Source of the DNA: a candidate division FCPU426 bacterium
Lineage (GTDB): Bacteria > Oederibacteriota > Muellerivitia > Muellerivitales > Muellerivitaceae
Assembly: GCA_963847625.1 (NCBI GenBank)
Contig: CAWKAR010000027.1
Coordinates: forward strand, 32,001-96,000
Reading direction: 5' to 3'
Length of the DNA: 64,000 nucleotides
Shown here: one piece after another, positions 24,536 through 48,676 of the stretch
Position numbering within the stretch: the stretch's first letter is position 1
Layout: each line of letters starts with the position of its first letter
Made by a program: the position numbers and the translations under genes
Notes under the pieces: generated by a model
Database searches by the model: none
Told to the model about the DNA's origin: nothing
Seen by the model: the letters and a program-made list of their open reading frames with translations, nothing else

Positions 24536-27406
24536 ATGAACTTCCGATATTTGAAGAAGCGAAAACCCCTCTTGCTTGGCCTTCTGGCCTTGCTTTGTTT
24601 TTCCACGGCCCTTTGGTTTTTCCATTTCAGGACCCATCGGATGGGGGGGGACATGGACGGGGACTCGGACAGCGAAAAGGAAGTGCATCCCAGGGTGTTG
24701 CAGGAATGGTTCAACCGGGGCCGGAAGAGCCTTGATTCCCGCCCCGCCGCGGCCCACCGCCTGGAAGCCAGGAAAAAGGCCCGCAGCCTGTCCTTGGCCC
24801 GTCTTTCAAACAATGGTCTTCAGGCTCTGTTGAGCTCCTCCAACCGCATCTCCCGCAACTCGGGCAACTGCGATTGGGCCGAGATGGGCCCCTCCCCCGA
24901 AAACGACTCGGTTGATTTTGAAACTTCCTATGTCTACGGCACCGTCTCGGGCCGGATCACCAGCCTGGCCCTGGACCTCGTCCATGACAGTACCGGAAAC
25001 ACGCTTTACCTGGGGGCGGCTTACGGGGGGGTCTGGAAAACCACCAACGGCCTCAGCGCATCCCCCTCTTTCACGCCCATCAGTGACCCGACCCAAAGCC
25101 TGGCGATGGGGGCACTGGCGCTCGATACGAGCGTGACTCCCCCCATTCTTTACGTGGGGTCGGGGGAATTGAACATGGCGGGCGATTCCTATTTCGGGAC
25201 CGGCATCCTGAAGTCCACCGACGACGGCAACACTTGGACCCTTTCCGGGACCGCCAACGGCGGGGCGCTCTCTTTCGAAGGTTTGGCTTTCTCCAAGCTC
25301 CTGGTGGACCCCACCAGCCCCTCCACGGTCCTGGCGTGCGCGGGTTTTTCCTGCTGCCATCCGGGAATCATCAACCTGAACCAGGGGCTTTACCGCTCCA
25401 CGGACCAGGCCAATAGTTGGACGCAGGTTTCCACCGTCAACGGCGGGGGCCAAGCCATCGCCGGGCATTCCTTCACGGACATTATCTACGACGGGAGCGC
25501 CACTTTTTACGCCGCCGTCCGGTTCCAGGGGGTTTACGCCTCCACGGACCACGGGAACAGCTGGACCCAACTGCCTTCCCCCTTTCCCAGCGGCACGGCC
25601 CCCTCCACCAGCAATTTCGCCCGGGCCACCCTGGCCTTCCGGGGAGGAACCCTTTGGTGCCTGGTGACAGACGCGAATGAGGGCCCCTCCATCCCGGTCA
25701 ACGGAACCGACACGGGCCTTTCCCAATCCACGGACGGAGGCAATACCTGGACGGCCGTAAACCTCCCGGCCAACCTCTACGGAGGCTCCGGCGCCATGCA
25801 GGGAAACTACGACCAATACGTTGCGGCTCCGCCCGGCTCCAATGCCCTGCTGGTGGCCGGAATCGACCTTTTCAAAACTTCCGCGGTCAACGGCACCTCA
25901 ACCTCCTGGGCCAATATGACGAACGCCTATTCCAACAGCCCAAAAAGCCATCCGGACCAGCACGCCATCGCGTTCCTGAACGCCAACACCTGGTTCATCG
26001 GCAACGACGGCGGTATTTGGGCCACCCAGAACGGGGGATCACAATTTACCAACAAGAACACCAACCTGGGGACCATCCAGTTCTACAGCGTGAGCCCCGA
26101 CCCTTCGGGCTACGGGAAATTCCTTGGAGGCTCCCAGGACAACGGGACTGCCGCCAACCACGGCAACAGCGGTTCCGCTTGGACGCTTTATTACGGCGGG
26201 GACGGGGGTTACACGGACGCCAATCCGGCCATGCTAGGCCAGTTTTATTCCGAGAATTTCATGATCGGCTTGTTCCGGACGGACAATTACGGGGCCGACT
26301 TTTTCGGCCATACCGTTATCGACGGTAATTACAGCCCCATCTCCTCGGATGAATGCGCCATGCTCATGCCCTACCAGGTGCTCCCCAGCAATCCGGCCAC
26401 GGTGGTCCTGGGAACCTCCCGGGTTTGGGAGGGTCCCGGAAACCCCTCGTCGGACGGGGCCGGATGGAATCCCATCAGTGGCTACCTGATCGGGAACGGC
26501 GCTTTCCAGTACATCCTGGCCCTGGCTGTGGCCCCGAGTAATACAGGTTACATCTACGCCACCACCGGGGACGACCTCGCGGGAAGCTACCAGGTCTTCA
26601 CCAACTCCGGCGGGAGCAATTGGACCAACGTTTCCACCGGCCTTCCCTCGGGGAACCCCATCGCGGGGATCGCCGTGGATCCCGGCAACCCCGCCATCGC
26701 CTACTCCGGTATCCAGGGTTTCACCGGCACGACGGGTTCCGGGCACGTTTTTCAGACCACCAACGGGGGAGGGAGTTGGACCGACATTACCGGCACCCTT
26801 CCCGACGCGCCGGTGAATTGGCTCCTGGTGGATCCCCAGTTTCCGGGGGATCTCTACGCGGCCACGGACGTCGGAGTTTTCGCGACCCAGGCCGTGAACG
26901 GTTCCTCCACCAGCTGGGCCAGAATGGGGACCCTGCTTCCGGACAGCATGATCCTGCAGATCAAGATGTCCGTGACCTGCCCCCGGCAGATCGTGGCCAC
27001 CACCCACGGTCGCGGCGCCTGGGCCATCTGCCCCTTGGACACCTCCTGTCCCCCCACGCCTACTCCCACGGTCACTTTCACGCCCACCTTCACGCCCAAC
27101 CTCACCCCACTTACTTCCCCCGGTTTCACCGTCCAGGCCCTGCCCAATACCACCGACGGCCAGACTCCCGTCAGCTTCGTCGTGGGACTGCCCGCGGCGA
27201 TGAATATCCAACTGAAAATCTTCGACCTGGCGGGAGAGCTGGTTTACTCCAAATCCGTCAACGGCGTGAATGGAACCAACGCGATCGGCTGGCTGCCGAG
27301 GAACCAGGGAGGAGAGCCTTTGGCCAGCGGAGTCTATATTTATTTCGTGCAGGGCGGCGATTCCTCCGACCTCCAGAAGACCGGGAAGATCGCGGTCGTC
27401 CATTAG
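24536..27406 (+). CDS. Secreted BNR/Asp-box beta-propeller protein (sortilin/GH74-like) with T9SS-like C-terminal domain
   Basis: Repeated S/TxDxGxTW Asp boxes, HPDQHAI, GGSQDNG and THGRG; Thr/Pro linker; tail IFDLAGELV...LASGVYIY...KTGKIAVVH. Confidence 0.85.
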   Translation: MNFRYLKKRKPLLLGLLALLCFSTALWFFHFRTHRMGGDMDGDSDSEKEVHPRVLQEWFNRGRKSLDSRPAAAHRLEARKKARSLSLARLSNNGLQALLSSSNRISRNSGNCDWAEMGPSPENDSVDFETSYVYGTVSGRITSLALDLVHDSTGNTLYLGAAYGGVWKTTNGLSASPSFTPISDPTQSLAMGALALDTSVTPPILYVGSGELNMAGDSYFGTGILKSTDDGNTWTLSGTANGGALSFEGLAFSKLLVDPTSPSTVLACAGFSCCHPGIINLNQGLYRSTDQANSWTQVSTVNGGGQAIAGHSFTDIIYDGSATFYAAVRFQGVYASTDHGNSWTQLPSPFPSGTAPSTSNFARATLAFRGGTLWCLVTDANEGPSIPVNGTDTGLSQSTDGGNTWTAVNLPANLYGGSGAMQGNYDQYVAAPPGSNALLVAGIDLFKTSAVNGTSTSWANMTNAYSNSPKSHPDQHAIAFLNANTWFIGNDGGIWATQNGGSQFTNKNTNLGTIQFYSVSPDPSGYGKFLGGSQDNGTAANHGNSGSAWTLYYGGDGGYTDANPAMLGQFYSENFMIGLFRTDNYGADFFGHTVIDGNYSPISSDECAMLMPYQVLPSNPATVVLGTSRVWEGPGNPSSDGAGWNPISGYLIGNGAFQYILALAVAPSNTGYIYATTGDDLAGSYQVFTNSGGSNWTNVSTGLPSGNPIAGIAVDPGNPAIAYSGIQGFTGTTGSGHVFQTTNGGGSWTDITGTLPDAPVNWLLVDPQFPGDLYAATDVGVFATQAVNGSSTSWARMGTLLPDSMILQIKMSVTCPRQIVATTHGRGAWAICPLDTSCPPTPTPTVTFTPTFTPNLTPLTSPGFTVQALPNTTDGQTPVSFVVGLPAAMNIQLKIFDLAGELVYSKSVNGVNGTNAIGWLPRNQGGEPLASGVYIYFVQGGDSSDLQKTGKIAVVH

Positions 27407-27600: not shown

Positions 27601-27642
27601 AGGGAATTGAAGTCCTTAAAAAATATCTTTTGTAGGGATTTA

Positions 27643-28986
27643 ATGAAATTATTTTTCCAGTTGGTACCAAGAATATCATTTCCTAACTGTATTTCCCCCA
27701 CCGGCTCCCCTCGAAAAAGTAGGCAATCCTGGGCGGCCATCTTCGCCGTTTTTTTCTTCTGGCCCCTCTTTTTAAACGCGCAGACACCGACGCCGGCCTG
27801 CTTCCTGGGCGCGACACCCTGGAATGCCCCCACTGGGTCCGGGAACAATGGAGTGGCCTATGGAGTGGCCGTGGACCTGTCGCGGTACCGCGTTTATTAT
27901 GCCGACCCCTATTACGTGAGCGGGGGCGTCACGGGCGCGGTGTTTGCCCTCGATTACCAGGGCGACCCGGTTACCGGGTTCGGAACCAACGGGATGGTTC
28001 CCTTGCCGGGAGCTTGGGGGGTGGCTATAGGGTATTGTGCTTATGAGGGCTTATACGTGACCCAAAATGGAACAGTCAACAAATTAGACGCCAACGGTGT
28101 TCTGATGGGCGGTGGTTGGCCCACCACCCTTAACAGCGGGGGTTTAAGGAATATCACGTTAGATAGATCGGGTAATGTGTACGTTGTGGATAGTTACACG
28201 ATTTATTCCTTGACCTCAACAGGAAGCCTTAATTCTTCCCTTAGTCCTGTGGATGCCTGGAACCAACCCTCGGGGTTGGTGATGGTTGGCCATGTCTTGT
28301 ATGTGGCGGATACAGTCAACGATAGGATCATGGGCTATCCGGTATCCAATCCGGGGTCTGGGGTGACCATCCTGGACAACGCCGCTACCGAGCTTTCAGG
28401 TTTGGAATCGGCACCTTATGGCCTGGCCCTGGATTCACAGGGCCGTCTTTACGCGGCCATGGGCACCGGCTACGACGTGTTCACCAACAACGGCGTTTCC
28501 TGGAGCCTTTCGTCCTCCAATTTCAACGCCGGTTTGGTGAATGGCTCGTATGGAATCGGCGTGGATGGGTTGGGGGCTGTTTACTTGGCCCCGGTGGGCG
28601 GCTTACAGCTGATGAAGATGGGTCCCTGTTTCTCGCAACAGCAACCACCGCCTCGCTGTACGGCGACACCAACTCCGACGCTTTACTACCAGGGCTCCAA
28701 CCCGCCCGCCCCAGGGCAATGTTTCATCTTTCCTTCACCGGTCCGGGGGGACCACGCCACCCTTGCCTATGACATGGCCGAAAGCGGCCGGATGGACCTG
28801 AAGATATGGACCTATAGCGGGGAATTGGCGGCCGGAATCACGGACCGGAAACCAGCCGGCGTCCAGGAAACGCCCTTCGACCTGACCCGGCTCGCGCCAA
28901 GGATTTATTTCTATGCCGTGACGTTGAGTTACGATTCGGGAAGAATTGAAAAAATCAAACCCCGCAAATTCGCCGTGATTCGTTGA
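27643..28986 (+). CDS. Secreted NHL-repeat beta-propeller protein with T9SS-like C-terminal domain
   Basis: GVAVD/GLALD/LYVAD blade repeats; signal peptide ends NA|Q; tail FPSPVRG...IYFY...KPRKFAVIR. Start chosen from the homologous ATG at 41351. Confidence 0.8.
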   Translation: MKLFFQLVPRISFPNCISPTGSPRKSRQSWAAIFAVFFFWPLFLNAQTPTPACFLGATPWNAPTGSGNNGVAYGVAVDLSRYRVYYADPYYVSGGVTGAVFALDYQGDPVTGFGTNGMVPLPGAWGVAIGYCAYEGLYVTQNGTVNKLDANGVLMGGGWPTTLNSGGLRNITLDRSGNVYVVDSYTIYSLTSTGSLNSSLSPVDAWNQPSGLVMVGHVLYVADTVNDRIMGYPVSNPGSGVTILDNAATELSGLESAPYGLALDSQGRLYAAMGTGYDVFTNNGVSWSLSSSNFNAGLVNGSYGIGVDGLGAVYLAPVGGLQLMKMGPCFSQQQPPPRCTATPTPTLYYQGSNPPAPGQCFIFPSPVRGDHATLAYDMAESGRMDLKIWTYSGELAAGITDRKPAGVQETPFDLTRLAPRIYFYAVTLSYDSGRIEKIKPRKFAVIR

Positions 28987-28992
28987 AGTGTT

Positions 28993-30549
28993 ATGAAAAC
29001 AAGAAAATTATTAAACGGGATCTTTGATAGAGGCTTATCCATGTTTATTTGGAATCCGGAATTGAACCTTACCCACACCTCAAAAAGCTTCCGGGTCTTC
29101 ATGGCAATCCTCTTGCCGGTTTTTTTCCTGGCCGCGCGATCCCCGGCCCAAACCACCCAGACTTTTTATTCCCCGGCGGGCCAGTTGAACTCCCTGGACA
29201 TTAATAATCTTTCCGCCCGCGCCGCTGCCTTGGGGTCGGCCTTCACGGGGCTGGCGGACGACTCCTCCGCCCTCTTCTCCAACCCCGCGGGTCTGGCCTG
29301 GCTGACAAAAGGGGAAATTACCCTGAACAGCCATCTGGGGCTGGCGGATACCCTTCAGGAAACGGCGGTGCTGGGCCTCGCGACCGGGAAATGGGGCGGC
29401 TTTGGGTTGGCCTGCAGTTACCTGGATTATGGCACGATGGAAGGCCGGGATAATTTGGGTTCACTGGCACCCAACTACAGCGCCAACCGGTGGGGCCTGC
29501 AGGAGGGTTGGGGGGTTAAAATCCTGGAGCCGTTGTCCCTCGGCGTGGCTCTGTTGTATTCCAGGGAATCCGTATCGGGAACGGGTTCTTCTTTCTTCGT
29601 CCCCGAGGCGGGCCTCCTTTGGGAACCCCTGAAGAATCTTAGGTGTGGACTGGCTTACGAGTATGGCGGCTGGAGTTCCATCCCCGGAAATTTGGATTCC
29701 TTCCTCAAAGTCGGCGCCTCTTATCTTTTCCGGATCGATCCTTCCTTCCAGCTTCTGGCGGCCTTAGATGATTCCATGGAGTTGAATTCCCTCAATTATT
29801 TCCAAACGGGAGTGGAAGCCTCCTGGAAATCCCGGTATTTCCTGCGGGCGGGATACCGGGGGGCCTTTACCGACAATGAATATGGAGGCTTCTGGGGTTT
29901 TTCCTTCGGAGGCGGTTTGGCACTGGCTGGTTTTAATTTGGATTACGCCTATTTGCCCTACGGGGACCTGGGCAACATGCACCGCTTCAGCGTCACTTAT
30001 CCTTTTGGAATTTTGGGCGGGTCTTCCGACCTTGCCACCCATTCCAAAACGCGTACGGGTGTAAAGGTTTCCGCCGCGGGTGTGGGAAATAAAAGTGCTG
30101 TGCCATCCGGGAATTCCATCGACCCCGGTTCCTATCCGGCATATTCCAGGGGTGCCTCGCCCGCGGCCGAGAACGGGGGAGGACCCAACGGGATTTCAAC
30201 CGGCGGTTCCAACGCTAATCAAGCCTCAACCCAAAGCCCTTCCAAACCCGATGCCCAAAGCACCTCCCAAAACAGCCTGGTCCTTCGCTTTAATATTCCC
30301 CCCGATTTCATGGCTCAAGGGAACGATATGATGGCCCAAAACAGGCCTTCCGAGGCTGTCACCCTTTACCAACAGGCCCTCAAAGAAAACGACCAGAATC
30401 CCCAGGCATGGTGGGTCCTTGGCAAAGCCTATTTCCGGCTCCATCAAAAAAATCATGTCATTCTCTGCTTGGAAAAGGTCTTGGCGTTGAACCCGGAGGA
30501 TACAACCCTTCGGGAATGGCTGGAAAAATATAAGGCCCAAAAGCCCTGA
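28993..30549 (+). CDS. PorV/PorQ (UPF0164, FadL-like) outer-membrane beta-barrel protein with C-terminal TPR domain
   Basis: Signature SARAAALGSAFTGLADDSSALFSNPAGLA and barrel end LDYAYLPYGDLGNMHRFSV, followed by a linker and TPR repeats. The start may be 29041. Confidence 0.85.
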   Translation: MKTRKLLNGIFDRGLSMFIWNPELNLTHTSKSFRVFMAILLPVFFLAARSPAQTTQTFYSPAGQLNSLDINNLSARAAALGSAFTGLADDSSALFSNPAGLAWLTKGEITLNSHLGLADTLQETAVLGLATGKWGGFGLACSYLDYGTMEGRDNLGSLAPNYSANRWGLQEGWGVKILEPLSLGVALLYSRESVSGTGSSFFVPEAGLLWEPLKNLRCGLAYEYGGWSSIPGNLDSFLKVGASYLFRIDPSFQLLAALDDSMELNSLNYFQTGVEASWKSRYFLRAGYRGAFTDNEYGGFWGFSFGGGLALAGFNLDYAYLPYGDLGNMHRFSVTYPFGILGGSSDLATHSKTRTGVKVSAAGVGNKSAVPSGNSIDPGSYPAYSRGASPAAENGGGPNGISTGGSNANQASTQSPSKPDAQSTSQNSLVLRFNIPPDFMAQGNDMMAQNRPSEAVTLYQQALKENDQNPQAWWVLGKAYFRLHQKNHVILCLEKVLALNPEDTTLREWLEKYKAQKP

Positions 30550-30645
30550 AACCAGTCTTTAATGGTAAGCGCCCAATAAACTTATAAAATATTTGGTTGA
30601 AACCTGACAGAGGATTTCACAGAAACGCTTTTAGTTTCTTAAAAA

Positions 30646-30676
30646 TGGAATAAATCGTCAATTTTGACCACTAGTA
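30646..30676 (+). promoter_or_regulatory. ECF-type (autoregulatory) promoter
   Basis: TGGAATAAAtCGtcAATTTTgACCACTAGTA, 27/31 identical to 32271..32301. Confidence 0.7.
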
Positions 30677-30735
30677 ATCACCAAACAGCCATGGAGCGGG
30701 GTGATTATGTTTACAGTGGTTTTAAGGAGATTTCT

Positions 30736-31308
30736 TTGGACGACCGGGAATTGGTTAAAAAACTCCTGGCCAAGGACGAAAAGGCCCAGCACTATTTTTT
30801 CAACACCTATTGGAACAAGCTTTATAAGGCTTGCGTCTATATTTTGGGCCAAAAGGACCATGAGGCCGAGGATTTGGCCCAGGAAGCCTTCATCGTGGCG
30901 CTTCGGAAACTTCCCGAGTTCGAGTTCCGATCCTCCCTCCACCACTGGCTTTTCCGGATCTGCACTTACCTATGCTACGAGCACATCCGCGAGCGCAAAA
31001 AGAAGCTTCTCCGGCTGGAAGAGAACCTGGATAACCTGCCGGGTTCCATCCAGGTGGAGCAGGGACGTTGGAAACAAGAGGAGGCCGACCGGCAAAGGAT
31101 GCTCCAACTGGTGGAGAAGCAGAAGGAACTGCTGGGTGAACCCTGCCGGGGCCTGCTGCGCCTGAGGGACGAAGAGGAGAAAAGCTACGCCATGATCGCC
31201 GAAAGCCTGAGAATCCCCATCGGGACCGTCATGTCCCGCCTAGCGCGATGCAAGGAAGCCCTGAAGCAGTTGGTGACCGGCGCTTTGGAGGAATTGACCC
31301 GTGTCTGA
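30736..31308 (+). CDS. ECF-family RNA polymerase sigma-70 factor
   Basis: Region 2 EAEDLAQEAF...WLFRI and region 4 SYAMIAESLRIPIGTVMSRLAR; TTG start behind AAGGAG. Confidence 0.92.
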   Translation: MDDRELVKKLLAKDEKAQHYFFNTYWNKLYKACVYILGQKDHEAEDLAQEAFIVALRKLPEFEFRSSLHHWLFRICTYLCYEHIRERKKKLLRLEENLDNLPGSIQVEQGRWKQEEADRQRMLQLVEKQKELLGEPCRGLLRLRDEEEKSYAMIAESLRIPIGTVMSRLARCKEALKQLVTGALEELTRV

Positions 31309-32179
31309 TTTGGTTAAAAAATTTTTTCGCGAGGATTTGACCGAGGCCGAGGATAAGGCCTTGAGCGAATCGTTATTGTCCTCGGACGAGGCCGCCGAAG
31401 AGTTTGTGAAAATATCGGAGGAAGCCTACACGCGCTACGGGCTACCGAAAGCCGATTGGGAAGGACCGATTCCCCACACCCTGCTAAAGCCACACGGTGG
31501 AAGCCCCTGGTTCGGGGCGACGATGGTGGTTTTGGGCTTGACCGCCGGTATTGTGTATTGGATTTGTCACCGGCAGGTGACGTCCACTCAGGAAATTTCC
31601 TCACCTGCTTCCACCGTCAAACCTCCTGCGGCAGTCCCGGTGAATAAACCAGCGAGGCATGAAAGCTTTCCTATTAATAGAATACAGAAGGTGATTTCGG
31701 AGACGGGAACAACTCTTCCCAAGGCCGTCCCCGAAGCGTTAAAGTCTCCATTAGCAGCGGTGAAGAAAACAGTTTCAAACGCGGTGCCAAATTTAAGCCA
31801 AGGGATTCCCGCGGCTTCCGAAATCCGTCCGGCCCCATCCGTTCCCAGCCTCCCAGGGCAACAAGCCATCGCTTCAACCGCCGGTTCGCCGGTTCGTTCC
31901 AGCACGACCCCAGTCCATTGGGACCAGGCCAATTCGCAGAATTATTCCAGCCTTTCGGTGGTGGTCCAACAAACTAGGCCTTCGGCCATTGAGGTCAATG
32001 TCCTGGACAGCCATGGGACCCTCATCGACCTTTTGTACCGGGGTTCCTTGGGCATCGGCGACTGGATATTCCAGTGGAACGGTAAACTAGCGGATGGAAG
32101 TCCCGCCCAAGCGGGGTATTACCAGATCGAGGTCAAGGTCGGGGCCTATTCCCAGCGCAAGACCATCCAGATCCACTGA
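31301..32179 (+). CDS. Putative membrane anti-sigma factor with C-terminal FlgD-Ig/CTD-like domain
   Basis: Overlaps the sigma stop codon. Helical cytoplasmic N-terminus, one TM segment (WFGATMVVLGLTAGIVYW), Pro/Ser-rich linker, and tail VLDSHGTLI...WNGKLADGSPAQAGYY...RKTIQIH. Confidence 0.75.
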   Translation: MSDLVKKFFREDLTEAEDKALSESLLSSDEAAEEFVKISEEAYTRYGLPKADWEGPIPHTLLKPHGGSPWFGATMVVLGLTAGIVYWICHRQVTSTQEISSPASTVKPPAAVPVNKPARHESFPINRIQKVISETGTTLPKAVPEALKSPLAAVKKTVSNAVPNLSQGIPAASEIRPAPSVPSLPGQQAIASTAGSPVRSSTTPVHWDQANSQNYSSLSVVVQQTRPSAIEVNVLDSHGTLIDLLYRGSLGIGDWIFQWNGKLADGSPAQAGYYQIEVKVGAYSQRKTIQIH

Positions 32180-32270
32180 CTTTACCGTTTAACCCGTTTT
32201 TCCCGTCATAACATTCCCAAAAAATAAACAGAAATCGTTTTTCGTTTTCCCAAATTTTTTAAATATTTTT

Positions 32271-32301
32271 TGGAATAAAACGGGAATTTTTACCACTAGT
32301 A
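32271..32301 (+). promoter_or_regulatory. ECF-type promoter upstream of the giant NHL protein
   Basis: TGGAATAAAaCGggAATTTTtACCACTAGTA. Confidence 0.7.
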
Positions 32302-32330: not shown

Positions 32331-35300
32331 ATGAACCGAAATTTGGATATCGACTGCAGTCAATATCTGATTCGCGGGGCGGTCTTCATGGCCGCTCTTT
32401 TATTTTTGTTGTGTTCCCAGCCAGGAAAGGGTTGGGCGCAATACCTTGATGTCCCGGCGCTGACGCCGAATCCCAATTACAAATTTCCACCTCGAGGAAT
32501 ATCGGGAGACCTTTGGGCCGATTTAGTACTCGGCCAAACCGATATCGGGAATATTTCACCCAACCAGGCCACGTCTAATACCGTTTGGAGTGCAGGAGGG
32601 GTTGTGGTGGATGCCCCTCATAACATCTTGTACACTTTTGATGGCTCCAATAACCGCGTTTTAGGTGTCGTAAATATCAGCGAAGCTCACTCAAACTTTG
32701 GGCCAAGCGACCCACCTTGCACCGCCACAATCCTTATAGGCCAACCTGACTTCACCCATACGGGTTGCAATTGGGACGCAAACTTCCAGGATTACCCCAA
32801 CCCGACGCAACCCACATCCTTTTGCCTCTGTGTGATGCCTCAAAATGACAACTCCGTAGCTGAATCATTTCCCACGGCTAATTTGGCTGTGGATTCCAGT
32901 GGCGACCTTTATGTTCCGGATTACTCCAATAATCGCGTATTGCGTTATGATTTTAATGATTTGCAACCAGCCCTTACCCCAGGCGCTGTTGTTACGAAGC
33001 CAGGGGCTAGTCATGTTTGGGGTCAGGGGCCCGTTGGAAATGAATTCTTCACCTCTTTAATCAATTTAGGTGGATCAGCGCCGACTTCATATAGCTTGTC
33101 TTTTCATGGTGTTGCAGGTTATGACTACAATGTTACAACTGCGGGTGTAGCGGTGGATTCCCAAGGCAACCTTTGGGTGGCTGATTTGGGAAACAATAGG
33201 GTTTTGAGGTTTCCCGGCTCGGGTTCGTGCTGTGTGGCTCCTTCAAATGGTGCAGACTTGGTCCTGGGTCAATCGAACTTTAATTTGAATGTCCAGGCCG
33301 GAAATGTGGATGATACCCTCCATATGTCCCGTCCGGTGGCAGTCAGGGTGGATAGCGCCGGAAATGTGTATGTCGCGGATAACCCACCAGCGCCCGGTGA
33401 ACCAAATGGCGCTGCGGGCAGGATTTTGGTTTATGAAGCTACTCCAGCTGTAACTCCTGCTCAATATACTTATGCTTCGTCACCCAGTGCTACTTTAAAC
33501 GCATATTTTTTAGCCCCGAAAGCATTGGAATGGGATGTTCAGAATGGGGTGACGGACGGTTTATGGGTGAGCGACTATCAAGAGCAACAGGTTGTTCTTT
33601 TACCCGTAAGCACTAGTAATCCCTCAAACTTTCTCCCTGCTTCAAAAGTATTATTACGCGATGTGCCCTGGATCGCGACAACCACCCCCACACAGCCACC
33701 TTCAAATTTTACTTGTTCCGGGGTAAGCATTACTTATTCCTATCCAGTAGGTAACCTTCAATCCTCCTGCTCCGGCGTTCCGTATGGAGTAGGCGTCGAT
33801 CAAAATGGTAATGTTTATGTGGGGTTTTCCCAATATTCCAACACGGATGTTTGGCGGTTTCCCAATGCCACCCCCATACCCAATCCCACCCCGGGTTCTT
33901 CCTGGTCAGCCGACTTGGCGGTTTTCAAACCCGCGCAATATAGGATGGTGAATAAAATGGGGTTGGGAAATTTCACTGGTGAAAGCGCCACATATGGAAT
34001 TGCAGTGGCCGATCATTTTACTTCATCCCCGCAAATTATTGCTGCGGATGTCAATCGGCTTTTGTTTTGGAATATTCCGCCGGGTGGCGTGACGGATAAA
34101 ACCAATCTCTACAATGGGAAAAATGCGGATGGGGTTGCGGGCAATCTTTTGGGTGCGGAAACATTTAAAGTGGGGACAAAGGCATTCGGCCGGATGCGTA
34201 CTGATGATGCCATTGTCGCAGCGATGACACCGACACCGAATTTCACACCTATCCCCCATCTTTGGACCTGCAGAGTAGATAATGGAACATTGGAAGTTTA
34301 CCAATTACCTTTGCAACCTTATGCTACGCCGATTGCAACCATTGCTCCCCCCATTGCGGTGTTGGGTTCTTCAAATCTTTTGACATGGGATAAATTAGTT
34401 GGCATCGCAGTGGATCCGCAATTGAATATATGGGTAAGCGATAATACTAACAGTCGTATTTTACATATTCGTAACCCACTAACATCCAATCCGGTTGTGG
34501 ACATAATTCTTGGACAAAACAGCGCTTCCGCAACACAAATCAACCAAGGTCAGGGAGAATACAAAGCGTCCGCGTCAAGTCTTTTTAGCGCTCAAGAAAT
34601 TGCTATGGATCATCATGGAGATTTATTTGTTTGCGACTTTAACCAGGAGTCTAGTGGAAATGGGAGGATTTTGAGATTCGATAAAGCCACGATCCAAAAC
34701 AATTCTAATAAGAATGCTTTATTCGGCATACCGGCATCGGCGGTTTTTGGAAGAAATGGGAATTTCTCCACTGGTTTTGGAGATTGTTTGCCAAATCCAA
34801 CGGGGAATACAAATATGGAAGTTTGCCACGTGGGAAGTTTGGCGTTTAATCAGGACGATAGTTTGATGGTGGTGGGAGAAAACGGTTATTCCAGTAATTG
34901 GTTCCCAGTGGTATTCACCAATCCGACATTGCCTCAAACGGTGTTAACAAGTACTGGGCAGGATTGGCCCGTGACTTATTTACAAGATTTTTATTCCGGC
35001 CCTACAGCTATAACATTCGATAAAGATGGAAACTTATTTGTAGGCGACTATCAGCGCTCCCGTTTACTGGCTTACTACCACCCCTTTCCCTCGCCTACTC
35101 CTACCCTAACCCCCACACTAGGCGTAAATCCCATGTGTACTCCGACGCCAAATTGGGTGAACAATATAAAACCTTATGGGATTGCGGCGAATAATAGCTA
35201 TATTTATGAGGCGGACCAAACAAGCGATTGTGTGAATGTATTTCCTCAAGGGAGTGGAACGGGGTCCCAGATATGTAATAACAATTTGAAAAAACCTTTT

Positions 35301-38300
35301 GGAGTGGCGGCAGATAATAATTATGTTTATGTGACTGACCAAACCCAAAATGAAGTTTTTGTTTTTCCTACTCCTGGTGGAACCCCGATTGCGAGTTGGG
35401 GGATCATTGGAAGCCGTCCAGGAGAGTTTAATAAGCCTTCCGGTATCGCGGTCACAGTCAATACTTCCTCTGTTACTCAAGTTTATGTTGCAGATACAGG
35501 GAACCATCGAATTGAGATTTTTTCATTGGATGGCCAATGGCACGCAAGTACACCCATTGTTTGGGGAACTCCTGGAAATATAGGCCATGGAACATTCAAT
35601 ACTCCAACGGGGATAGCTTTGGATTCCCAAGGTAATATTTACGTGGCGGATTCAACCACGGGTTTAGTTCAGGTTTTCAATCCCCAAAGGGTTTTTCTTT
35701 TCCAATGGGACGCGACGATGGGATCAACAACCCCCTGCGCTGAATTTATAACTATCCAGGGTTGTCTTGTTTTTGTATCAGATGGTCCTGGAAATGGACA
35801 TGGAAATGTACGTGTTTTCCAATTGAACGGTTCACCCGTCAATTCTGTCTCACCTGTCGGTATTTACCCAGGCGGATCAGATACGGAAGGTTTAGCAATC
35901 GGACCTAATTCGGGAACCTTATATGTCGCGGATTTCAGTATTGGAAATATATCTGCATACACAAAATGTTCCTGGCCCACTTGTGTCCCGACGGTCACAC
36001 CTCCAATGACATGGAATCCTGCGACTGCGGTCCCAACGTATATTCCTTCCAATACACCAACAAACATAATTACAGTTTCGCCTACTTTTACAGGCACATT
36101 ATCGACCAACACTCCCACGCCATTTGAAACATTAACTCCAACGAATACATTCACCTATTTTCCAACAAACACGCCCATTAATACTCCCTCGCCCACACCG
36201 GTTTTATGTTCCGTCTCAATTTTTCCTTCCAGCCTGACGCCCTATCCAGTGACCCAGCCTTATGGATTGGCTAGCGATGGGACAAATATATACGTGGCCG
36301 ACCAATTCGCGAATCAAATCATTGAATTGGGTTCCTCGGGGAGTTTTATCAACGAGTTTGGATATGATGGTACAACCAATTATTTAACCGAGCCTTTGGG
36401 AGTGGCTGCGGATGGGAACGGCGTTTATGTTACGGATGAAACTCAAAATGAATTGTTCATCTTTAATACTCATGGTTCAGCGCCTAATGTGACCTATGGT
36501 AGTGAAGGAGGGGGTCTGGGCCAATTCGAATCGCCCGCCGGAATTGCTGTTACTACGGCCAATGGATCAACCACAATCTTTGTAGCGGACCAATACAATA
36601 TGCGGGTTCAGGAATTTACTTGGGCTGGCGGTTCATCCGTCCCTACCCCTGTGGCGCAGTGGGGCAGTGAGGGTATCATGGGGAACGGAACTTTCGTAGC
36701 CCCGACCGGTATTGCCATTGATAATTACTTTGGAACAGGTTACGTATTCGTATCGGATTGGGAAACGGGGTTGGTGCAAGTGTTTAATCCCTTGAACCCG
36801 CCACAGAATCAGTTCATGTGGCAATGGGACGCGACTTTAAATACCCCCCTATTAGGCGCGGAATTTATAGTGCAAAACGGTTGTTTGTTTTACGTTTCGG
36901 ATGGTTTTGGCAATATCGGCGTATTCGACTTATATGGGAATTACCAGGACGCGATCTCGGTTCCAGGTGGTTTCTACAATGTGGAAGGTCTCGCTGCGGA
37001 AGGAGGGTCCCTTTTTGCGGCCGATTACGGATTAGGCCAAATCGATCAAATACAATCTTGTTCTATCCCAACTTGTGTGCCGACCAGCTACCTATCCCGA
37101 ACCCCGACCTTTACACCCATATGGACGCCAACTAATACTCCAACACCTAATTTAACATCTGTCTGCTGTCAAGTCGCAACTGATTGGTTACCTACTCCGA
37201 CTTTCTCAACAGTTATGGGTGTGGCAGTGGATCGGTGGAGGGGTCGTGTTTATGTTGCGGATAATAATGACGGTATCTTACAGGCTATGGATTATTGGGG
37301 AAATCCCATCTCCGGTTTCGCAGGGTTAGAGAATGGCAAATTACCATTGAACAGTGCTTGGGATGTTGCGATGGGGAATTGCGGGAATGATTATGTTTAT
37401 GTTGTGACGCGAGGGGCAAGTGCTGGGGACTCGCTAAACAAATTGAATCCGTCAGGAACACCCGTCGCAACAGCTGTCCTTGGTTCAACAGGCCCTAGAG
37501 CCTTAAATGTGGATAACAATGGAAATGCCTATATTGCAACAGACCAGAACAACATACAAATTTTTAATTCCAATTTAACGCCAGTAGCTACTATCGGCCC
37601 AAACATGGGTAGCTTGGGATCTTTAAGTGCACCATCAGGTTTGGTAAAGTTGGGTCCTAATTTGTATGTTTCAGATACCATGAATAATCGGGTTGTCTTA
37701 TTCCCGGAAACAACACCCAATACCAATATTTATGGGACGCCGACCCCGATTGCGACGATTGGTTATCCATGTGGATTAACCGCGGACTTAAATGGAAATT
37801 TTTACGTGACTACCGATCAGCAAGGGGTCAATGGTTATGATATTTATGATTCGGGATTTAATTTTAAAAGCGCTTGCGCCAATTCACAGATAGTATGGCC
37901 CTTTGGAATCGGAGTCGATGAAAATGGTGCGGCTTATGTGGGTGCGGGAGTCAATGGCGTTGTAAAAATGAAGCCTTGTTATATCCAGTCTCCCGTGCCG
38001 ACTTGTACGACCATTCCTACCAGGACCTATACATCCACACCCACCCCCACGAACATCCTTTATCCCTGCGCCGTATCTTTTACTTTCCCCGCGGGTTACC
38101 CGGAAGGTGTAGCTATGGATAATGCCGGGAGCATTTATGTGGCCGATGAGGACGCGGGCGTAGTGGATGTTTACAACCCCAATTGGAGCTCTACCATGCA
38201 GATAGGCGCCGGTTATTTAACCCAGCCTTTTGGGGTGGCCCTTGATGGAGCGGGCAATATCTATGTCACGGATGTGGCCCAGAAAATGGCATATGAATTC

Positions 38301-40709
38301 GACCTCCATGGTGCGCTTATAACGGAATGGTCTTTACCCGGAACACCAGGAGGGATCGCTGTCTATTCGCCTAATCAATATGTCTATATTGTGGATCAAG
38401 ACCATCAGGAAGTTGATTGGTATGAATTTATCGGTGGCCAATTTGAACTACAAAATTATTGGAATGGAACAGACGGCTCGAATGGAAGTAATGGAAGCCA
38501 TGGACAACGATTTGTTAATCCTGAGGGGGTTGCTGCTAGTTATGATCCTAATGATTTAAGCCACAGTTATGTTTATGTATCAGACTGGGGGACTGGGTTG
38601 GTCCAGGCTTATAATGATTCTGGATCACTATGGGTTGGCAGTTGGGATGTAACTAAGGATCCCAATACTGGTACACCAACCGGTCTATTGGGAGCCAATT
38701 TCATTGGCCTATATAAGAATTGTTTGGCTTATGTCTCGGATGGTTATGGATCAGTAGGATTTTTCCAAATATCTTTTACAGGCAACTCCTTAAATCCCCC
38801 GTTAAATAAAGGAACAAATCAAGGCCCATTTTATGATACCGAAGGGATTGGTGTTGGGAACGGAACTTGGGCAGTGGCCGATATTCACAATGATATGACA
38901 GGACAAGTGGATGCTTTTGGCCCCTGTCCTAATGTCTGTTGGTCTCCAACAAACACGCCCACCAACACACCAACTTGGACAACTGCCTATACTCACACGC
39001 CGACCTATACGTTCACATATACCCAGACCTATACGTATACTTACACATATACCTATACCTGCCCACCTACTGCGCCCCCCAATATTGTTTGGAGCACTCC
39101 AACCCCTCAATGTTGTCAAATCGCGAGCGAATGGGTACCAACCCCGGTATTCAATACTGTTAATGGTGTGGCAGTAGACCGATGGAGGGGCCGCGTTTAT
39201 GTAGCAGATAAGAATGATGGTATCGTTCAGGCCATGAATTATACGGGAAAACCAGTCAATTCTTTTGGCGGGGTAGGGACGGCATTATTACCGAATGCTT
39301 GGGATGTTGCCATGGGGAACTGTGGGAATGACTTTGTTTATGCTGTGACGCGGGCAGGCACTGGGAGTTCGTTAAATAAATTTAATCCTGCTGGAACACC
39401 TGTCGCAACAGTTGGCATTGCAACCAACACCAGGGCCATAAATGTGGATATTAATGGAAACGCCTATGTTGCGGCAGATGATAGCGTTATAAGAATTTTC
39501 AACTCTAGCTTAACACCAGTAGCTACTCTTGGTCCTAACATGGGTTGCTTGGGGTCTTTATACTTACCTTCAGGTTTGATGAAGGTTGGGTCCAACTTAT
39601 ACGTTTCAGATACGAATAATAATCGAATTGTTGTGTTCCCGGAAACAACACCAAACACCAATATTTATGGTACGCCGACCCCGGTTGCGGCGGTTGGATA
39701 TCCTTATGAAATGACTACGGATTTGAACGGGAATATTTATTTGGTTTCTCAAGGTTTAGGTGGCTATGCAATATTTAACCCGTCGCTTACATCGAATATA
39801 ACGACCTGCGATAATGGATATACAGGGGGATCATGGGGGATTGCTGTTGATGAAAAAGGCGCGGTTTATTTGGGAGTCGCGGGATCAAGCAGTGTCGTAA
39901 AAATGCAGCCTTGTATTTCAAGCCAGTCTCCCGTGCCTTCTTGCACCCACATCCCAACCAGGACACCAACACCTATTAATACGCCAACTTGGACTTACAC
40001 ATATACGCCGAATAATACGAACACGCATTCGCCTACCCCTAATACGCCGACTAAGACACCGACACCCACATACACGTATACACCGAACAAGACGACTACC
40101 CATTCGCCTACCCCTAATACGCCGACTAAGACACCGACACCCACATACACGTATACACCGAACAAGACGACTACCCATTCGCCTACCCCTAATACGCCGA
40201 CTAAGACACCGACACCCACATACACGTATACACCGAACAAGACGACTACCCATTCGCCTACCCCTAATACGCCGACCCGGACGCCTACACCCACATTCAC
40301 GTTTACATATACGCCGACCAAGGGGACTACCCCTGGAATAGCGGCACAGGGGAATGAGAAAGAAATGATGTTGGTAAAGGGGTGCTCATCATCGACTCCA
40401 ACTCCCGCGATGGAAGGGATATTGGGAAAAGTCATAGCGGCACCGAGCATATCCAGGGGCGGGGAAGCGGTACAAATTCGGTTCATCCTGGGGCATGCGG
40501 CGAAGGTGACGCTAAAGATTTACACAGTAGCGGGAAGATTGGTTTACGAGAAACAAGCGCTAAGTTCTGTCGGTTCCAACAAACTGGCATGGCAAGTGGA
40601 AAATCAGCGGAACCAGATTGTGGCCAACGGACTTTATTTTTACATGTTGCAAGCTGAGGCGGAAAATAGCATCGTTCGCAAAACAGGCAAGATAATTGTT
40701 TTGCGTTGA
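32331..40709 (+). CDS. Giant (2792 aa) secreted multi-NHL-propeller protein with T9SS-like C-terminal domain
   Basis: Signal peptide ...GWA|Q; many NHL blades (P.G[IV]A.D..G..YVAD..N.R[IV]); Thr/Pro linkers; tail IYTVAGRLV...VANGLYFY...KTGKIIVLR. Confidence 0.88.
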   Translation: MNRNLDIDCSQYLIRGAVFMAALLFLLCSQPGKGWAQYLDVPALTPNPNYKFPPRGISGDLWADLVLGQTDIGNISPNQATSNTVWSAGGVVVDAPHNILYTFDGSNNRVLGVVNISEAHSNFGPSDPPCTATILIGQPDFTHTGCNWDANFQDYPNPTQPTSFCLCVMPQNDNSVAESFPTANLAVDSSGDLYVPDYSNNRVLRYDFNDLQPALTPGAVVTKPGASHVWGQGPVGNEFFTSLINLGGSAPTSYSLSFHGVAGYDYNVTTAGVAVDSQGNLWVADLGNNRVLRFPGSGSCCVAPSNGADLVLGQSNFNLNVQAGNVDDTLHMSRPVAVRVDSAGNVYVADNPPAPGEPNGAAGRILVYEATPAVTPAQYTYASSPSATLNAYFLAPKALEWDVQNGVTDGLWVSDYQEQQVVLLPVSTSNPSNFLPASKVLLRDVPWIATTTPTQPPSNFTCSGVSITYSYPVGNLQSSCSGVPYGVGVDQNGNVYVGFSQYSNTDVWRFPNATPIPNPTPGSSWSADLAVFKPAQYRMVNKMGLGNFTGESATYGIAVADHFTSSPQIIAADVNRLLFWNIPPGGVTDKTNLYNGKNADGVAGNLLGAETFKVGTKAFGRMRTDDAIVAAMTPTPNFTPIPHLWTCRVDNGTLEVYQLPLQPYATPIATIAPPIAVLGSSNLLTWDKLVGIAVDPQLNIWVSDNTNSRILHIRNPLTSNPVVDIILGQNSASATQINQGQGEYKASASSLFSAQEIAMDHHGDLFVCDFNQESSGNGRILRFDKATIQNNSNKNALFGIPASAVFGRNGNFSTGFGDCLPNPTGNTNMEVCHVGSLAFNQDDSLMVVGENGYSSNWFPVVFTNPTLPQTVLTSTGQDWPVTYLQDFYSGPTAITFDKDGNLFVGDYQRSRLLAYYHPFPSPTPTLTPTLGVNPMCTPTPNWVNNIKPYGIAANNSYIYEADQTSDCVNVFPQGSGTGSQICNNNLKKPFGVAADNNYVYVTDQTQNEVFVFPTPGGTPIASWGIIGSRPGEFNKPSGIAVTVNTSSVTQVYVADTGNHRIEIFSLDGQWHASTPIVWGTPGNIGHGTFNTPTGIALDSQGNIYVADSTTGLVQVFNPQRVFLFQWDATMGSTTPCAEFITIQGCLVFVSDGPGNGHGNVRVFQLNGSPVNSVSPVGIYPGGSDTEGLAIGPNSGTLYVADFSIGNISAYTKCSWPTCVPTVTPPMTWNPATAVPTYIPSNTPTNIITVSPTFTGTLSTNTPTPFETLTPTNTFTYFPTNTPINTPSPTPVLCSVSIFPSSLTPYPVTQPYGLASDGTNIYVADQFANQIIELGSSGSFINEFGYDGTTNYLTEPLGVAADGNGVYVTDETQNELFIFNTHGSAPNVTYGSEGGGLGQFESPAGIAVTTANGSTTIFVADQYNMRVQEFTWAGGSSVPTPVAQWGSEGIMGNGTFVAPTGIAIDNYFGTGYVFVSDWETGLVQVFNPLNPPQNQFMWQWDATLNTPLLGAEFIVQNGCLFYVSDGFGNIGVFDLYGNYQDAISVPGGFYNVEGLAAEGGSLFAADYGLGQIDQIQSCSIPTCVPTSYLSRTPTFTPIWTPTNTPTPNLTSVCCQVATDWLPTPTFSTVMGVAVDRWRGRVYVADNNDGILQAMDYWGNPISGFAGLENGKLPLNSAWDVAMGNCGNDYVYVVTRGASAGDSLNKLNPSGTPVATAVLGSTGPRALNVDNNGNAYIATDQNNIQIFNSNLTPVATIGPNMGSLGSLSAPSGLVKLGPNLYVSDTMNNRVVLFPETTPNTNIYGTPTPIATIGYPCGLTADLNGNFYVTTDQQGVNGYDIYDSGFNFKSACANSQIVWPFGIGVDENGAAYVGAGVNGVVKMKPCYIQSPVPTCTTIPTRTYTSTPTPTNILYPCAVSFTFPAGYPEGVAMDNAGSIYVADEDAGVVDVYNPNWSSTMQIGAGYLTQPFGVALDGAGNIYVTDVAQKMAYEFDLHGALITEWSLPGTPGGIAVYSPNQYVYIVDQDHQEVDWYEFIGGQFELQNYWNGTDGSNGSNGSHGQRFVNPEGVAASYDPNDLSHSYVYVSDWGTGLVQAYNDSGSLWVGSWDVTKDPNTGTPTGLLGANFIGLYKNCLAYVSDGYGSVGFFQISFTGNSLNPPLNKGTNQGPFYDTEGIGVGNGTWAVADIHNDMTGQVDAFGPCPNVCWSPTNTPTNTPTWTTAYTHTPTYTFTYTQTYTYTYTYTYTCPPTAPPNIVWSTPTPQCCQIASEWVPTPVFNTVNGVAVDRWRGRVYVADKNDGIVQAMNYTGKPVNSFGGVGTALLPNAWDVAMGNCGNDFVYAVTRAGTGSSLNKFNPAGTPVATVGIATNTRAINVDINGNAYVAADDSVIRIFNSSLTPVATLGPNMGCLGSLYLPSGLMKVGSNLYVSDTNNNRIVVFPETTPNTNIYGTPTPVAAVGYPYEMTTDLNGNIYLVSQGLGGYAIFNPSLTSNITTCDNGYTGGSWGIAVDEKGAVYLGVAGSSSVVKMQPCISSQSPVPSCTHIPTRTPTPINTPTWTYTYTPNNTNTHSPTPNTPTKTPTPTYTYTPNKTTTHSPTPNTPTKTPTPTYTYTPNKTTTHSPTPNTPTKTPTPTYTYTPNKTTTHSPTPNTPTRTPTPTFTFTYTPTKGTTPGIAAQGNEKEMMLVKGCSSSTPTPAMEGILGKVIAAPSISRGGEAVQIRFILGHAAKVTLKIYTVAGRLVYEKQALSSVGSNKLAWQVENQRNQIVANGLYFYMLQAEAENSIVRKTGKIIVLR
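39993..40292 (+). repeat. 4 x 75-bp coding tandem repeat (TYTYTPNKTTTHSPTPNTPTKTPTP)
   Basis: CATTCGCCTACC recurs at 40026, 40101, 40176 and 40251. Confidence 0.9.
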
Positions 40710-41536: not shown

Positions 41537-41675
41537 GTCCAATTATTTCTTGCGAAAAATTGAGATCAGCCATGATTTATAGCGGCGGAAGACTTCTAGG
41601 TATATATATAATTAACCTTTCTGGGGAGAGACGGTTTGGAAACTGTTTCATATTTCCTTTGAAAGGATGTGGATT

Positions 41676-43703: not shown

Positions 43704-43788
43704 AAGGGAAGGGGAGCGAAGGGAAAGAACCCATCGGTTTCACCAGGTACCTGAAAGGAATCCGGCTGTGGGGCTCAGCCGATGATCT

Positions 43789-44496
43789 TTACCACTTGAG
43801 AGGGTTCCCGTCGTTATAAAGGAAAAGCGATGTTTGGGCCATGGTCAGGCCCTTGACCATTTTCACGATGGCGGAGGCGGATTCCTCCGGAGCGAGTGAC
43901 GCGTTGGGGCCGCCCATATCCGTTCGGACCCTGCCCGGGTCCATGCAAACGACGATGATGTTTTCTCCCTTGAACTCGAAGGCCATGGTACGCGTGACCA
44001 TGTTCAAGGCGGCCTTTGAAACTCCGTAAGCATAAAAATGCCCCTCATTCTTGCCAGCCAAAGACGCCAGACCCGAAGTCGAGTTCACGACACGGGGTTT
44101 TGCCGATTTGCGAAGAAGGGGAAGAAAGGCCCGGGTGACCCTCATGGGGCCCAGCACGTTCACCTCGAAGGCCTCCCGGCATTTTTGTAATTCCACTTTT
44201 TCCAAACTCGAGTCAAAGGGGGGTGGGGAAATGCCGGCGTTGTTGAATAGAATATCCAGGTGCTGAACCTTTTGGGCCGCTTCCTTGGAGGCGGCCTCCA
44301 CTTGCTGGTCCGAATCCACCCCCATGGCCAGGATTTCAAGTTTACCCGGGTTTAATTTTTTCAAGGTCTGGAGTTCTGAAGCCTGTTGGGGCTGGCGGCA
44401 GGCCGCGAAAACCTGGTCCCCCTGACTTAGCAGTACTTTTGTGATCGCCAAGCCAATACCCCGGTTGGCTCCTGTGACGAGAATGTTTTCCGGCAT
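43789..44496 (-). CDS. Short-chain dehydrogenase/reductase (CsgA/C-factor-like)
   Basis: TGANRGIG, NNAG, YGVSKAALN (YxxxK) and PGRVRTDMGG motifs. Confidence 0.9.
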   Translation of the reverse strand: MPENILVTGANRGIGLAITKVLLSQGDQVFAACRQPQQASELQTLKKLNPGKLEILAMGVDSDQQVEAASKEAAQKVQHLDILFNNAGISPPPFDSSLEKVELQKCREAFEVNVLGPMRVTRAFLPLLRKSAKPRVVNSTSGLASLAGKNEGHFYAYGVSKAALNMVTRTMAFEFKGENIIVVCMDPGRVRTDMGGPNASLAPEESASAIVKMVKGLTMAQTSLFLYNDGNPLKW

Positions 44497-44552
44497 GTGA
44501 ACTCCTGTTCGTTTTTTCAATTTTAACTTCGGGTTTTTATGAAGCAATCAAA

Positions 44553-44602
44553 TGGTAACGTTTCCAGCTTGTTTGTGGAAACAAAAACTTGAACCGGTTT
44601 CA
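44553..44602. promoter_or_regulatory. Two LacI/cre-like operator palindromes
   Basis: TGGTAACGTTTCCA (44553-44566) and TTGAACCGGTTTCA (44589-44602) between the SDR and GH8 genes. Confidence 0.45.
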
Positions 44603-44779
44603 TAACGGGTTGTTTCGCTAAAACGAAACGATCCCAGGATGTTTCCGAAGGGATTTTTAAATGCCGAACAAGTATTTCCCCGAAAGTAAGAAGTAAGTTG
44701 GGAACTGTAGTATATTTTATTGTTAAAGCTAATATTCCTTTCCTTTTCTGATGGATTCCATCCATATAAAGGTGCCGCT

Positions 44780-48580: not shown

Positions 48581-48676
48581 AATCGAACCATCGATTTGAG
48601 CCCTACAGGCCTTCCAGAGGGCCTTCGCCGGGTTGAAAACCTTGGCGCAAGCAAAGTCCTATGATAGTCTCAACCC

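Follow-up and report, generated by a model that had tools for sequence, protein, structure and literature searches.

The 64,000-nucleotide stretch of DNA analysed here (the window; positions 32,001 to 96,000 of contig CAWKAR010000027.1, from a candidate division FCPU426 bacterium) contains a unit of four genes, hereafter the module, which lies directly ahead of a giant gene on the plus strand. The order is X, a PorV-family barrel, a sigma factor of the extracytoplasmic function (ECF) type, a single-transmembrane (TM) protein ending in an immunoglobulin-like (Ig) domain, and the giant gene. Gene X (27607-28986) encodes a signal peptide, an NHL/SBBP beta-propeller (Pfam NHL, SGL and SBBP), a Pro/Thr linker and a C-terminal domain (CTD; about 28708-28983, by an X-CTD profile) resembling type A CTDs of type IX secretion systems (T9SS). 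The barrel gene (28993-30549) encodes 518 amino acids (aa), the single-TM protein (31301-32179) has 292 aa with an Ig domain of the FlgD/CTD fold, and the giant (32331-40709) has 2792 aa, with multiple NHL propellers and, by a weak profile match, a general cargo CTD. A sequence-only reading of this DNA had proposed the order barrel, sigma factor, single-TM protein and giant; its four open reading frames (ORFs), at 28993-30549, 30664-31308, 31301-32179 and 32331-40709, are present and profiles bear out the order; gene X and a periplasmic tail on the barrel were not part of that account.

The barrel passes the NF033709 PorV_fam profile (96.8 bits; cut-off 90) and reaches 26.3 against the cut-off of 250 of the NF033710 PorV equivalog, which places it outside PorV proper, the SprA shuttle. 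Its model has 14 strands (about 29206-30006), with the T9SS translocon entries 8gl6_F and 6h3i_F as top fold matches, and starts at ATG 29041 or 29101 are possible alternatives. The last barrel strand is followed by a disordered linker, then by a lone, alternating beta-strand (residues 427-438; 30271-30306) with a Phe conserved in 65 of 70 aligned rows, and by TPR helices (30307-30537; Pfam TPR_2, 38.7 bits) modelled with a per-residue confidence (pLDDT) above 95. The lone strand is unstructured in the monomer model, with a pLDDT of about 51. Among the PorV-family genes of this genome (about 16, or 17 by a looser profile), a profile of the tail gives 44-100 bits for the three module barrels and 23 for one other gene, whereas 13 further genes give no match. 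A tree with 35 sampled module barrels groups them in a single clade (support 0.951) that excludes 13 other paralogues and has 3 tail-less barrels nested inside it. By eye, the 17 PorV-like genes carry varied C-terminal extensions of OmpA, FN3 or TPR type.

The 292-aa protein is likely a class I anti-sigma factor, judging from its sequence and model. The gene directly follows that of the sigma factor (+1), and the product comprises an N-terminal three-helix domain (31304-31435; three confident helices in the model), one TM helix (31511-31573; residues 71-91), a disordered P/S/T/A-rich linker and an Ig sandwich (31943-32176). The N-terminal domain gives middling fold matches to MucA-cyto (Z 6.8, rmsd 3.4, 63 aligned) and RsiW (Z 6.2), and the columns of sigma K88 and anti-sigma D18, a single column pair, covary at z 11.4 against a shuffled maximum of 6.1. 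A hydropathy peak of at least 1.6 is present in 42 of 63 family members and weaker in the others, and the linkers span 37-130 residues, about half of 64 being 51 or shorter. The Pfam scan gave no FecR match, a Cys motif occurs in 0 of 89 anti-sigmas, and no fused forms were seen among 57 matches to the N-terminal profile (7999 candidates scored), of which 55 have FlgD_ig and 2 are short.

At its periplasmic end, residues 217-279 pass PF13860 FlgD_ig (32.2; cut-off 27), one of 110 FlgD_ig matches in the genome, and the modelled sandwich matches the PorU CTD (Z 8.1, rmsd 2.1, 77 aligned) and FlgD (Z 7.8). The sequence-only reading was right to see here a likely anti-sigma factor with a CTD-fold domain. 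The further statement that this domain has the same pattern as the tails of the secreted cargo proteins holds for kinship (profile-profile probability 97.9) and fails for identity. A profile of 108 cargo tails scores a median of 79.7 bits on cargo, matched from the first position, and a median of 22.6 bits on anti-sigma Ig domains, where the match mostly begins at position 5-15; the profile alignment likewise begins after the first cargo strand. The 292-aa protein has no TIGR04183 match at E<=1, a profile that two cargo tails match weakly. In the model the Ig has six strands of three or more residues plus a short bridge at 205-206, and alignment and model together indicate a domain that lacks the first (PNP) strand of a complete seven-strand type A CTD. 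One type A trait is retained, a Lys six residues from the end (the K287 column; K in 51 of 70 rows). Residues 201-210 (31898-31930) pack on the Ig in the monomer model (pLDDT 89) and might serve as a cover for its groove when no donor strand is present.

A partner for this groove is predicted within the module. The complex prediction of barrel tail with anti-sigma Ig scored 0.75, the best control reaching 0.07; the mark that it passes was reached by 116 of 157 solved pairs and 2 of 215 mismatched pairs, a rough calibration made with our own alignments. At least 92% of the contacts recur between runs, and partner pLDDT is at least 77. Barrel residues 427-438 are predicted to contact anti-sigma residues 215-226 and 276-289, with L431, F433 and I435 of the barrel touching V220, V222, I276, V278, K287 and I289. 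We read the model as a barrel strand inserted between the first and last Ig strands, where the missing strand would sit. Searches of PDB sequences returned generic TPR and FlgD matches and no like complex. The suggestion in the sequence-only reading that the domain engages a PorV-like protein survives as predicted binding in altered form, the contact being predicted at the periplasmic tail of a dedicated PorV paralogue, whereas CTDs bind the extracellular loops of PorV.

The sigma factor (30736-31308, 190 aa; Pfam Sigma70_r2 and r4_2) passes TIGR02937 (75; cut-off 42.9) and has only sigma2 and sigma4 domains, as in ECF factors. Its frame is open from 30664, and because of an AAGGAG site at 30724-30729 and the family alignment, TTG 30736 is the likely true start. 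In its sigma4 region, the Cys of a PCR motif and that of an ARC motif do not vary among 61 sigmas, and a third Cys is almost invariant, a pattern that could reflect a metal or redox site. The window contains exactly two matches to the motif GGAATAAA-N12-ACCACTAGTA (0.05 expected), one as a candidate autoregulatory promoter upstream of the sigma gene (30647-30676), the other, a second candidate promoter, 30 nucleotides (nt) upstream of the giant gene (32272-32301), the likely regulated output. Across the genome, GGAATAAA with a spacer of 13 to CCACTA gives 6 exact matches, against 0-1 at other spacers. Of 100 family sigmas, 80 have GGAATAAA with at most one mismatch in the 130 nt upstream (shuffles give a mean of 6.7 and a maximum of 11), and the -10 element in the family is mostly CACTA; in relatives, 14 sites with similar motifs lie ahead of the adjoining large gene. 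Scans for Sigma70 promoters and terminators stayed at chance level.

A relaxed scan of the genome found 27 sites, some without a clear gene, the others including two module sigmas, three CTD cargos and about eight other secreted or lipoprotein-like genes; among the genes downstream of motifs, a strict lipobox pattern was found in 1 of 11 and a Cys-ending signal, by eye, in 7. A stricter test found the motif at 2 of 108 CTD cargos and 12 of 1904 other long ORFs. Neither sprA nor the divergent third module sigma has the motif. Since it marks few cargos and not sprA, the regulon looks local rather than secretion-wide, as far as promoter motifs can tell. The earlier proposal that the sigma factor transcribes cargo would apply to the giant, which shares its promoter motif, and not to cargo at large, only 2-3 of the 108 genes having the motif.

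Gene X appears to supply the input. An X-CTD profile built from relatives scores 114.6 bits on the window X, on which the general cargo profile scores 0, and its three best matches in the genome are the module X genes (115, 99 and 61 bits; next 40). The X and cargo profiles align over their full length (probability 98.6), and PF18962 matches at E<=0.001 in 35 of 56 X proteins, the window X not among them. By these profiles, X carries a full CTD of a type A-like subtype that is specific to the module. In all 78 loci holding both genes, X lies within 109 nt of the PorV ORF or overlaps it; X is likely a surface sensor held by the barrel. Passengers are present in 58 of 77 X proteins, with PA14+CBM9 in 17 of 56, NHL in 17 of 56, and malectin, pectate lyase, Kelch and ice-binding domains in others. 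Downstream genes include GH30 (12 of 37), NHL giants, GH28, PL4 and S8, and in relatives the type of X passenger tracks that of the downstream enzyme, PA14+CBM9 going with GH30 and pectate-lyase-like forms with GH28: PA14+CBM9 forms precede one downstream cluster in 12 of 13 loci having a downstream gene, pectate-lyase+malectin forms a GH28 cluster in 2 of 2 loci, and NHL forms NHL giants in 8 of 12. Some X proteins repeat a domain of their own giant, with 82% identity in locus L037. In the window, two propellers of the giant (about 37110-38027 and 39096-39965) resemble the X passenger (33-36% identity; E 6e-36 and 3e-33), and another giant elsewhere in the genome also matches X. In one lyase-like passenger, a Ser takes the place of the first Arg in the RxPxxR of solved lyases, which we take to be the catalytic base.

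We compared 100 regions drawn from the matches (60 from the best anti-sigma matches, 35 from further sigma matches and another 5 with an anti-sigma match) and selected on nothing but similarity to the anti-sigma or the sigma; with the three copies of this genome they gave 102 family sigmas. An anti-sigma gene is present at 95 of these loci, with a PorV-family gene as well at 81, a tailed barrel at 77 and all four genes at 73. The link to a PorV-like gene that the sequence-only reading pointed out is conserved in 81 of 95 sigma/anti-sigma pairs. Three gene orders occur (sigma-anti-X-barrel, sigma-anti-barrel-X and X-barrel-sigma-anti); in that classification, one locus was wrongly assigned the barrel next door. 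The loci are related by descent, and the counts are therefore not independent. At 160 outgroup loci with distant sigmas, taken from among the matches listed in the locus search with the sigma alignment, anti-sigma or X domains were found at none and weak barrel matches at 5. None of the 5 other ECF-type sigmas of this genome shares a contig with a PorV-family gene. A related-locus search with the anti-sigma alignment returned no conserved stretch.

The exceptions bear on the tail. At L259 and L257 the anti-sigma is absent and the barrels have no tail; at L258 the anti-sigma is directly followed by an unrelated, glycine-rich, non-PorV protein (L258:7720-8763) that bears the strand+TPR tail; and at L066 a complete barrel beside the anti-sigma has a degenerate one. 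L257, L259, L260 and L261, from another bacterial family, have related sigmas with no adjoining anti-sigma gene. At L262 (1214-5989), a 1156-aa gene (CHAT-like end, by eye) stands between a family sigma and a protein with the anti-sigma N-terminus and a different C-terminal domain.

The anti-sigma was matched in 29 of 30 other genomes of the family, the sigma profile (E<=1e-45) in 26 of 30, in 4 of 5 and 1 of 2 genomes of two other families, and nowhere else in the phylum; up to 7 paralogous modules occur per genome. In a profile search, 262 clusters matched at E<=1e-30, multi-Ig repeat proteins among them. Of 121 genomes in the phylum of a Bacteroidota genome, the anti-sigma profile matched 1, in a protein without Ig. 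A search with its N-terminal profile was negative in 5 single genomes, in 151 genomes of the phylum of an Elusimicrobiota genome and in 101 of that of a KSB1 genome; this profile finds two of the three anti-sigmas of this genome, and divergent copies are therefore missed. All ESM Atlas matches lie below 0.9, with Bacteroidota clusters of 360-390 aa and a CHU_C tail at 0.87-0.88. These clusters are possibly analogous proteins and offer a lead; in 5 fragmentary Bacteroidota genomes, no sigma gene followed by a short CHU_C protein was found.

The genome also holds parts of the machinery that such a system would use. It has lipid A and Lpt genes, an RseP protease (TIGR00054) and a SprA that passes TIGR04189 (236; cut-off 200), and SprA-like genes occur in 92 of 99 genomes of the phylum. 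The sprA gene (L295:2658-15490; G000:C45) lies beside lptFG and lpxDCA.

On balance, we favour a model whereby the four genes form a trans-envelope, surface-sensing switch assembled from type IX secretion parts, in which a barrel strand completes the Ig domain of the anti-sigma factor. X would likely pass out through the SprA translocon, and its CTD would then fix it to the outer loops of the cognate barrel, as adjacency and T9SS biology suggest. In the periplasm, the barrel strand is predicted to fill the groove of the anti-sigma Ig and so to tie both membranes together. By analogy with FoxA/FoxR and RsgI, the latched anti-sigma would be stable and would hold the sigma factor. Binding of X to an external polymer or surface might then pull or loosen the latch and expose the anti-sigma to proteolysis ending at RseP, the weakest step of the model. 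The freed sigma would likely read GGAATAAA-N13-CCACTA at its own gene, at the 2792-aa giant and at about ten other genes, mostly for surface proteins. We put forward more tentatively an extended form, which we think possible without thinking it probable: that a lineage outside Bacteroidota rebuilt T9SS parts into a new class of signalling system, with a CTD-anchored surface antenna, a PorV-type barrel and a donor-strand latch acting in trans, forced open on insoluble polymer, with bare-CTD forms reporting export.

Several observations weigh against the favoured model. How a signal would pass across the barrel is a gap in it, and the linker of the barrel tail varies from 25 to 203 residues. Controls for the complex prediction were unrelated proteins, not other CTDs, and covariation between tail and Ig is weak, with 3 of the 25 top pairs in the interface, a level also reached by shuffles. 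Between X and barrel, 11 of the 15 top covarying pairs fall in loops 1-2, and 7 of 15 do so in a barrel-sigma control, so the signal is not specific. The window X is a propeller with no evident ligand, 19 of 77 X proteins have no obvious sensing part, and the match of sensor to output may come from shared descent. Among the 35 loci picked by sigma, 16 are complete, 8 have only sigma and anti-sigma and 5 only sigma, many on short contigs, and 6 loci with only sigma and anti-sigma have full flanks. In this 94%-complete genome, searches for GldM and a C25 sortase found neither, with weak controls that themselves gave no match above cut-off and without extending to GldL, K and N; the export machine may therefore be atypical and differ from that of Bacteroidota.

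The foremost alternative keeps the same latch and makes export or assembly state its input, and so returns by another path to the idea of the sequence-only reading; the latch would be set as X, a reporter substrate, arrives on the barrel or accumulates in the periplasm. The 19 X proteins that are a signal peptide and CTD only (116-161 aa) suit it, and there is a precedent in PorA: PorXY-SigP is activated when, in the periplasm, the PorA CTD binds to PorY (PMC12152298). We nevertheless consider it unlikely: passengers that track the downstream enzyme are the majority, the motif is absent at sprA, with weak two-mismatch matches at 2 of 21 genes checked, and as many as 7 paralogous modules in a genome are more in keeping with many inputs than with a single one. 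Less probable still is an envelope tether that reports outer-membrane assembly or the distance between membranes, with X a mere passenger of the barrel. Two flexible linkers adding up to at least 65 residues, and the L258 tail on an unrelated anchor without X, could be explained in this way, but linker sums of 65-260 residues make a poor ruler, and the motif-bearing genes are those of surface proteins and enzymes, not of envelope repair.

The sequence-only reading had suggested that the anti-sigma Ig could engage the secretion machinery or PorV and free the sigma factor according to secretion capacity; in this version it would be a tethered secretion signal that enters SprA and binds the outer loops of PorV. 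Its CTD-like fold, its conserved Lys and the prevalence of SprA in the phylum are what such a signal would have; the missing first strand, the predicted contact with the barrel tail, linkers often so short that they would struggle to reach the outer loops of PorV, and a motif at so few cargo genes and not at sprA leave this explanation very improbable, and the anti-sigma is unlikely to sense secretion capacity directly. Equally slight is the chance that the genes are a co-inherited cassette whose barrel and anti-sigma are physically unlinked, as the relatedness of the loci and the sigma/anti-sigma pairs without a nearby barrel might suggest, since the linkage is kept in three different gene orders, the tail goes with the anti-sigma and the complex prediction passes.

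Diverse known systems share features with the switch that we propose. In TonB-dependent cell-surface signalling (FoxA-FoxR-FoxI and FecA-FecR-FecI; ECF239-type), a periplasmic extension of a barrel similarly binds the C-terminal domain of a single-TM anti-sigma, and the periplasmic domain of FoxA protects FoxR from proteolysis in the absence of signal (PMC11637429). Here, in contrast, the barrel is of the PorV family with a C-terminal strand+TPR extension, the anti-sigma domain is a FlgD-type Ig and a separate CTD protein is the likely sensor; the Pfam scan of barrel and anti-sigma found neither a TonB receptor with an N-terminal signalling domain nor a FecR-type anti-sigma. SigI-RsgI of Clostridium thermocellum and Bacillus subtilis likewise comprises paralogous switches with CBM, PA14 or enzyme-like sensors and polysaccharide-degrading target genes, and in RsgI a beta-strand has to come away from the sheet that holds it before RseP can cut (PMC10328401, PMC10556640). 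RsgI is one autoproteolytically cut chain in monoderms, whereas the model here has three proteins, two membranes and a strand predicted to act in trans; neither a SigI-type sigma nor a SEAL domain was found, the sigma being ECF-type and the periplasmic domain an all-beta Ig.

Among T9SS-related systems, PorA-PorY/PorX-SigP of Porphyromonas gingivalis also feeds an ECF sigma from a PorV-binding CTD protein (PMC7712824, PMC12152298), but through a two-component route that controls T9SS machinery genes and has no anti-sigma. CTDs bind extracellular loops of PorV inside SprA (PMC10994853), and type B CTD cargo is encoded beside its own barrel, a cognate PorP/SprF shuttle (PMC12618676); here a type A-like CTD is paired with a PorV-family barrel that also bears a signalling tail. 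ECF21 resembles the module in that its single-TM anti-sigma has an outer-membrane barrel fused to it or following it, and differs in its Bacteroidetes hosts and its -35 element, GCAACC instead of GGAATAAA; ECF26 and ECF207 share the -35 GGAATAAA and differ in a -10 of GTT or GTC and, for ECF207, a zinc finger (PMC7826278). The main text and part of the supplement of that reclassification contain no FlgD or PorV term. A literature search that left most subscription papers outside its reach found no description of the four-gene unit, which we regard as a real, conserved and undescribed variant of trans-envelope ECF signalling. If our model is true, the module gives ECF signals a way across two membranes that depends neither on TonB nor on a two-component system, barrels of the PorV type and CTD folds have been put to new use as signal transducers, and surface binding would switch on the neighbouring giant secreted proteins. 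Such a switch would be a diderm counterpart, with swappable sensors, to biomass sensing by RsgI, and it points to a SprA/PorV/CTD export system, GldM not being found, in an uncultured phylum. The small two-domain complex (about 190 residues) and the defined promoter make it testable in vitro.

Two further module copies lie elsewhere in the genome (G000:C22:75353-78338 and C22:62388-66813), one with a bare 128-aa X and one divergent and without the promoter motif. Just upstream of X, the window carries a 956-aa BNR/sortilin-type propeller with a general cargo CTD (24536-27406), which may or may not belong to the module. Beyond the giant gene, positions 41667-50470 encode a TonB-dependent receptor, a short-chain dehydrogenase, a 1286-aa GH8 protein and an AraC regulator, and the giant genes of the window contain long Thr/Pro-rich tandem arrays at 39996-40307, 46820-47622, 52908-56320 and 59799-63052.

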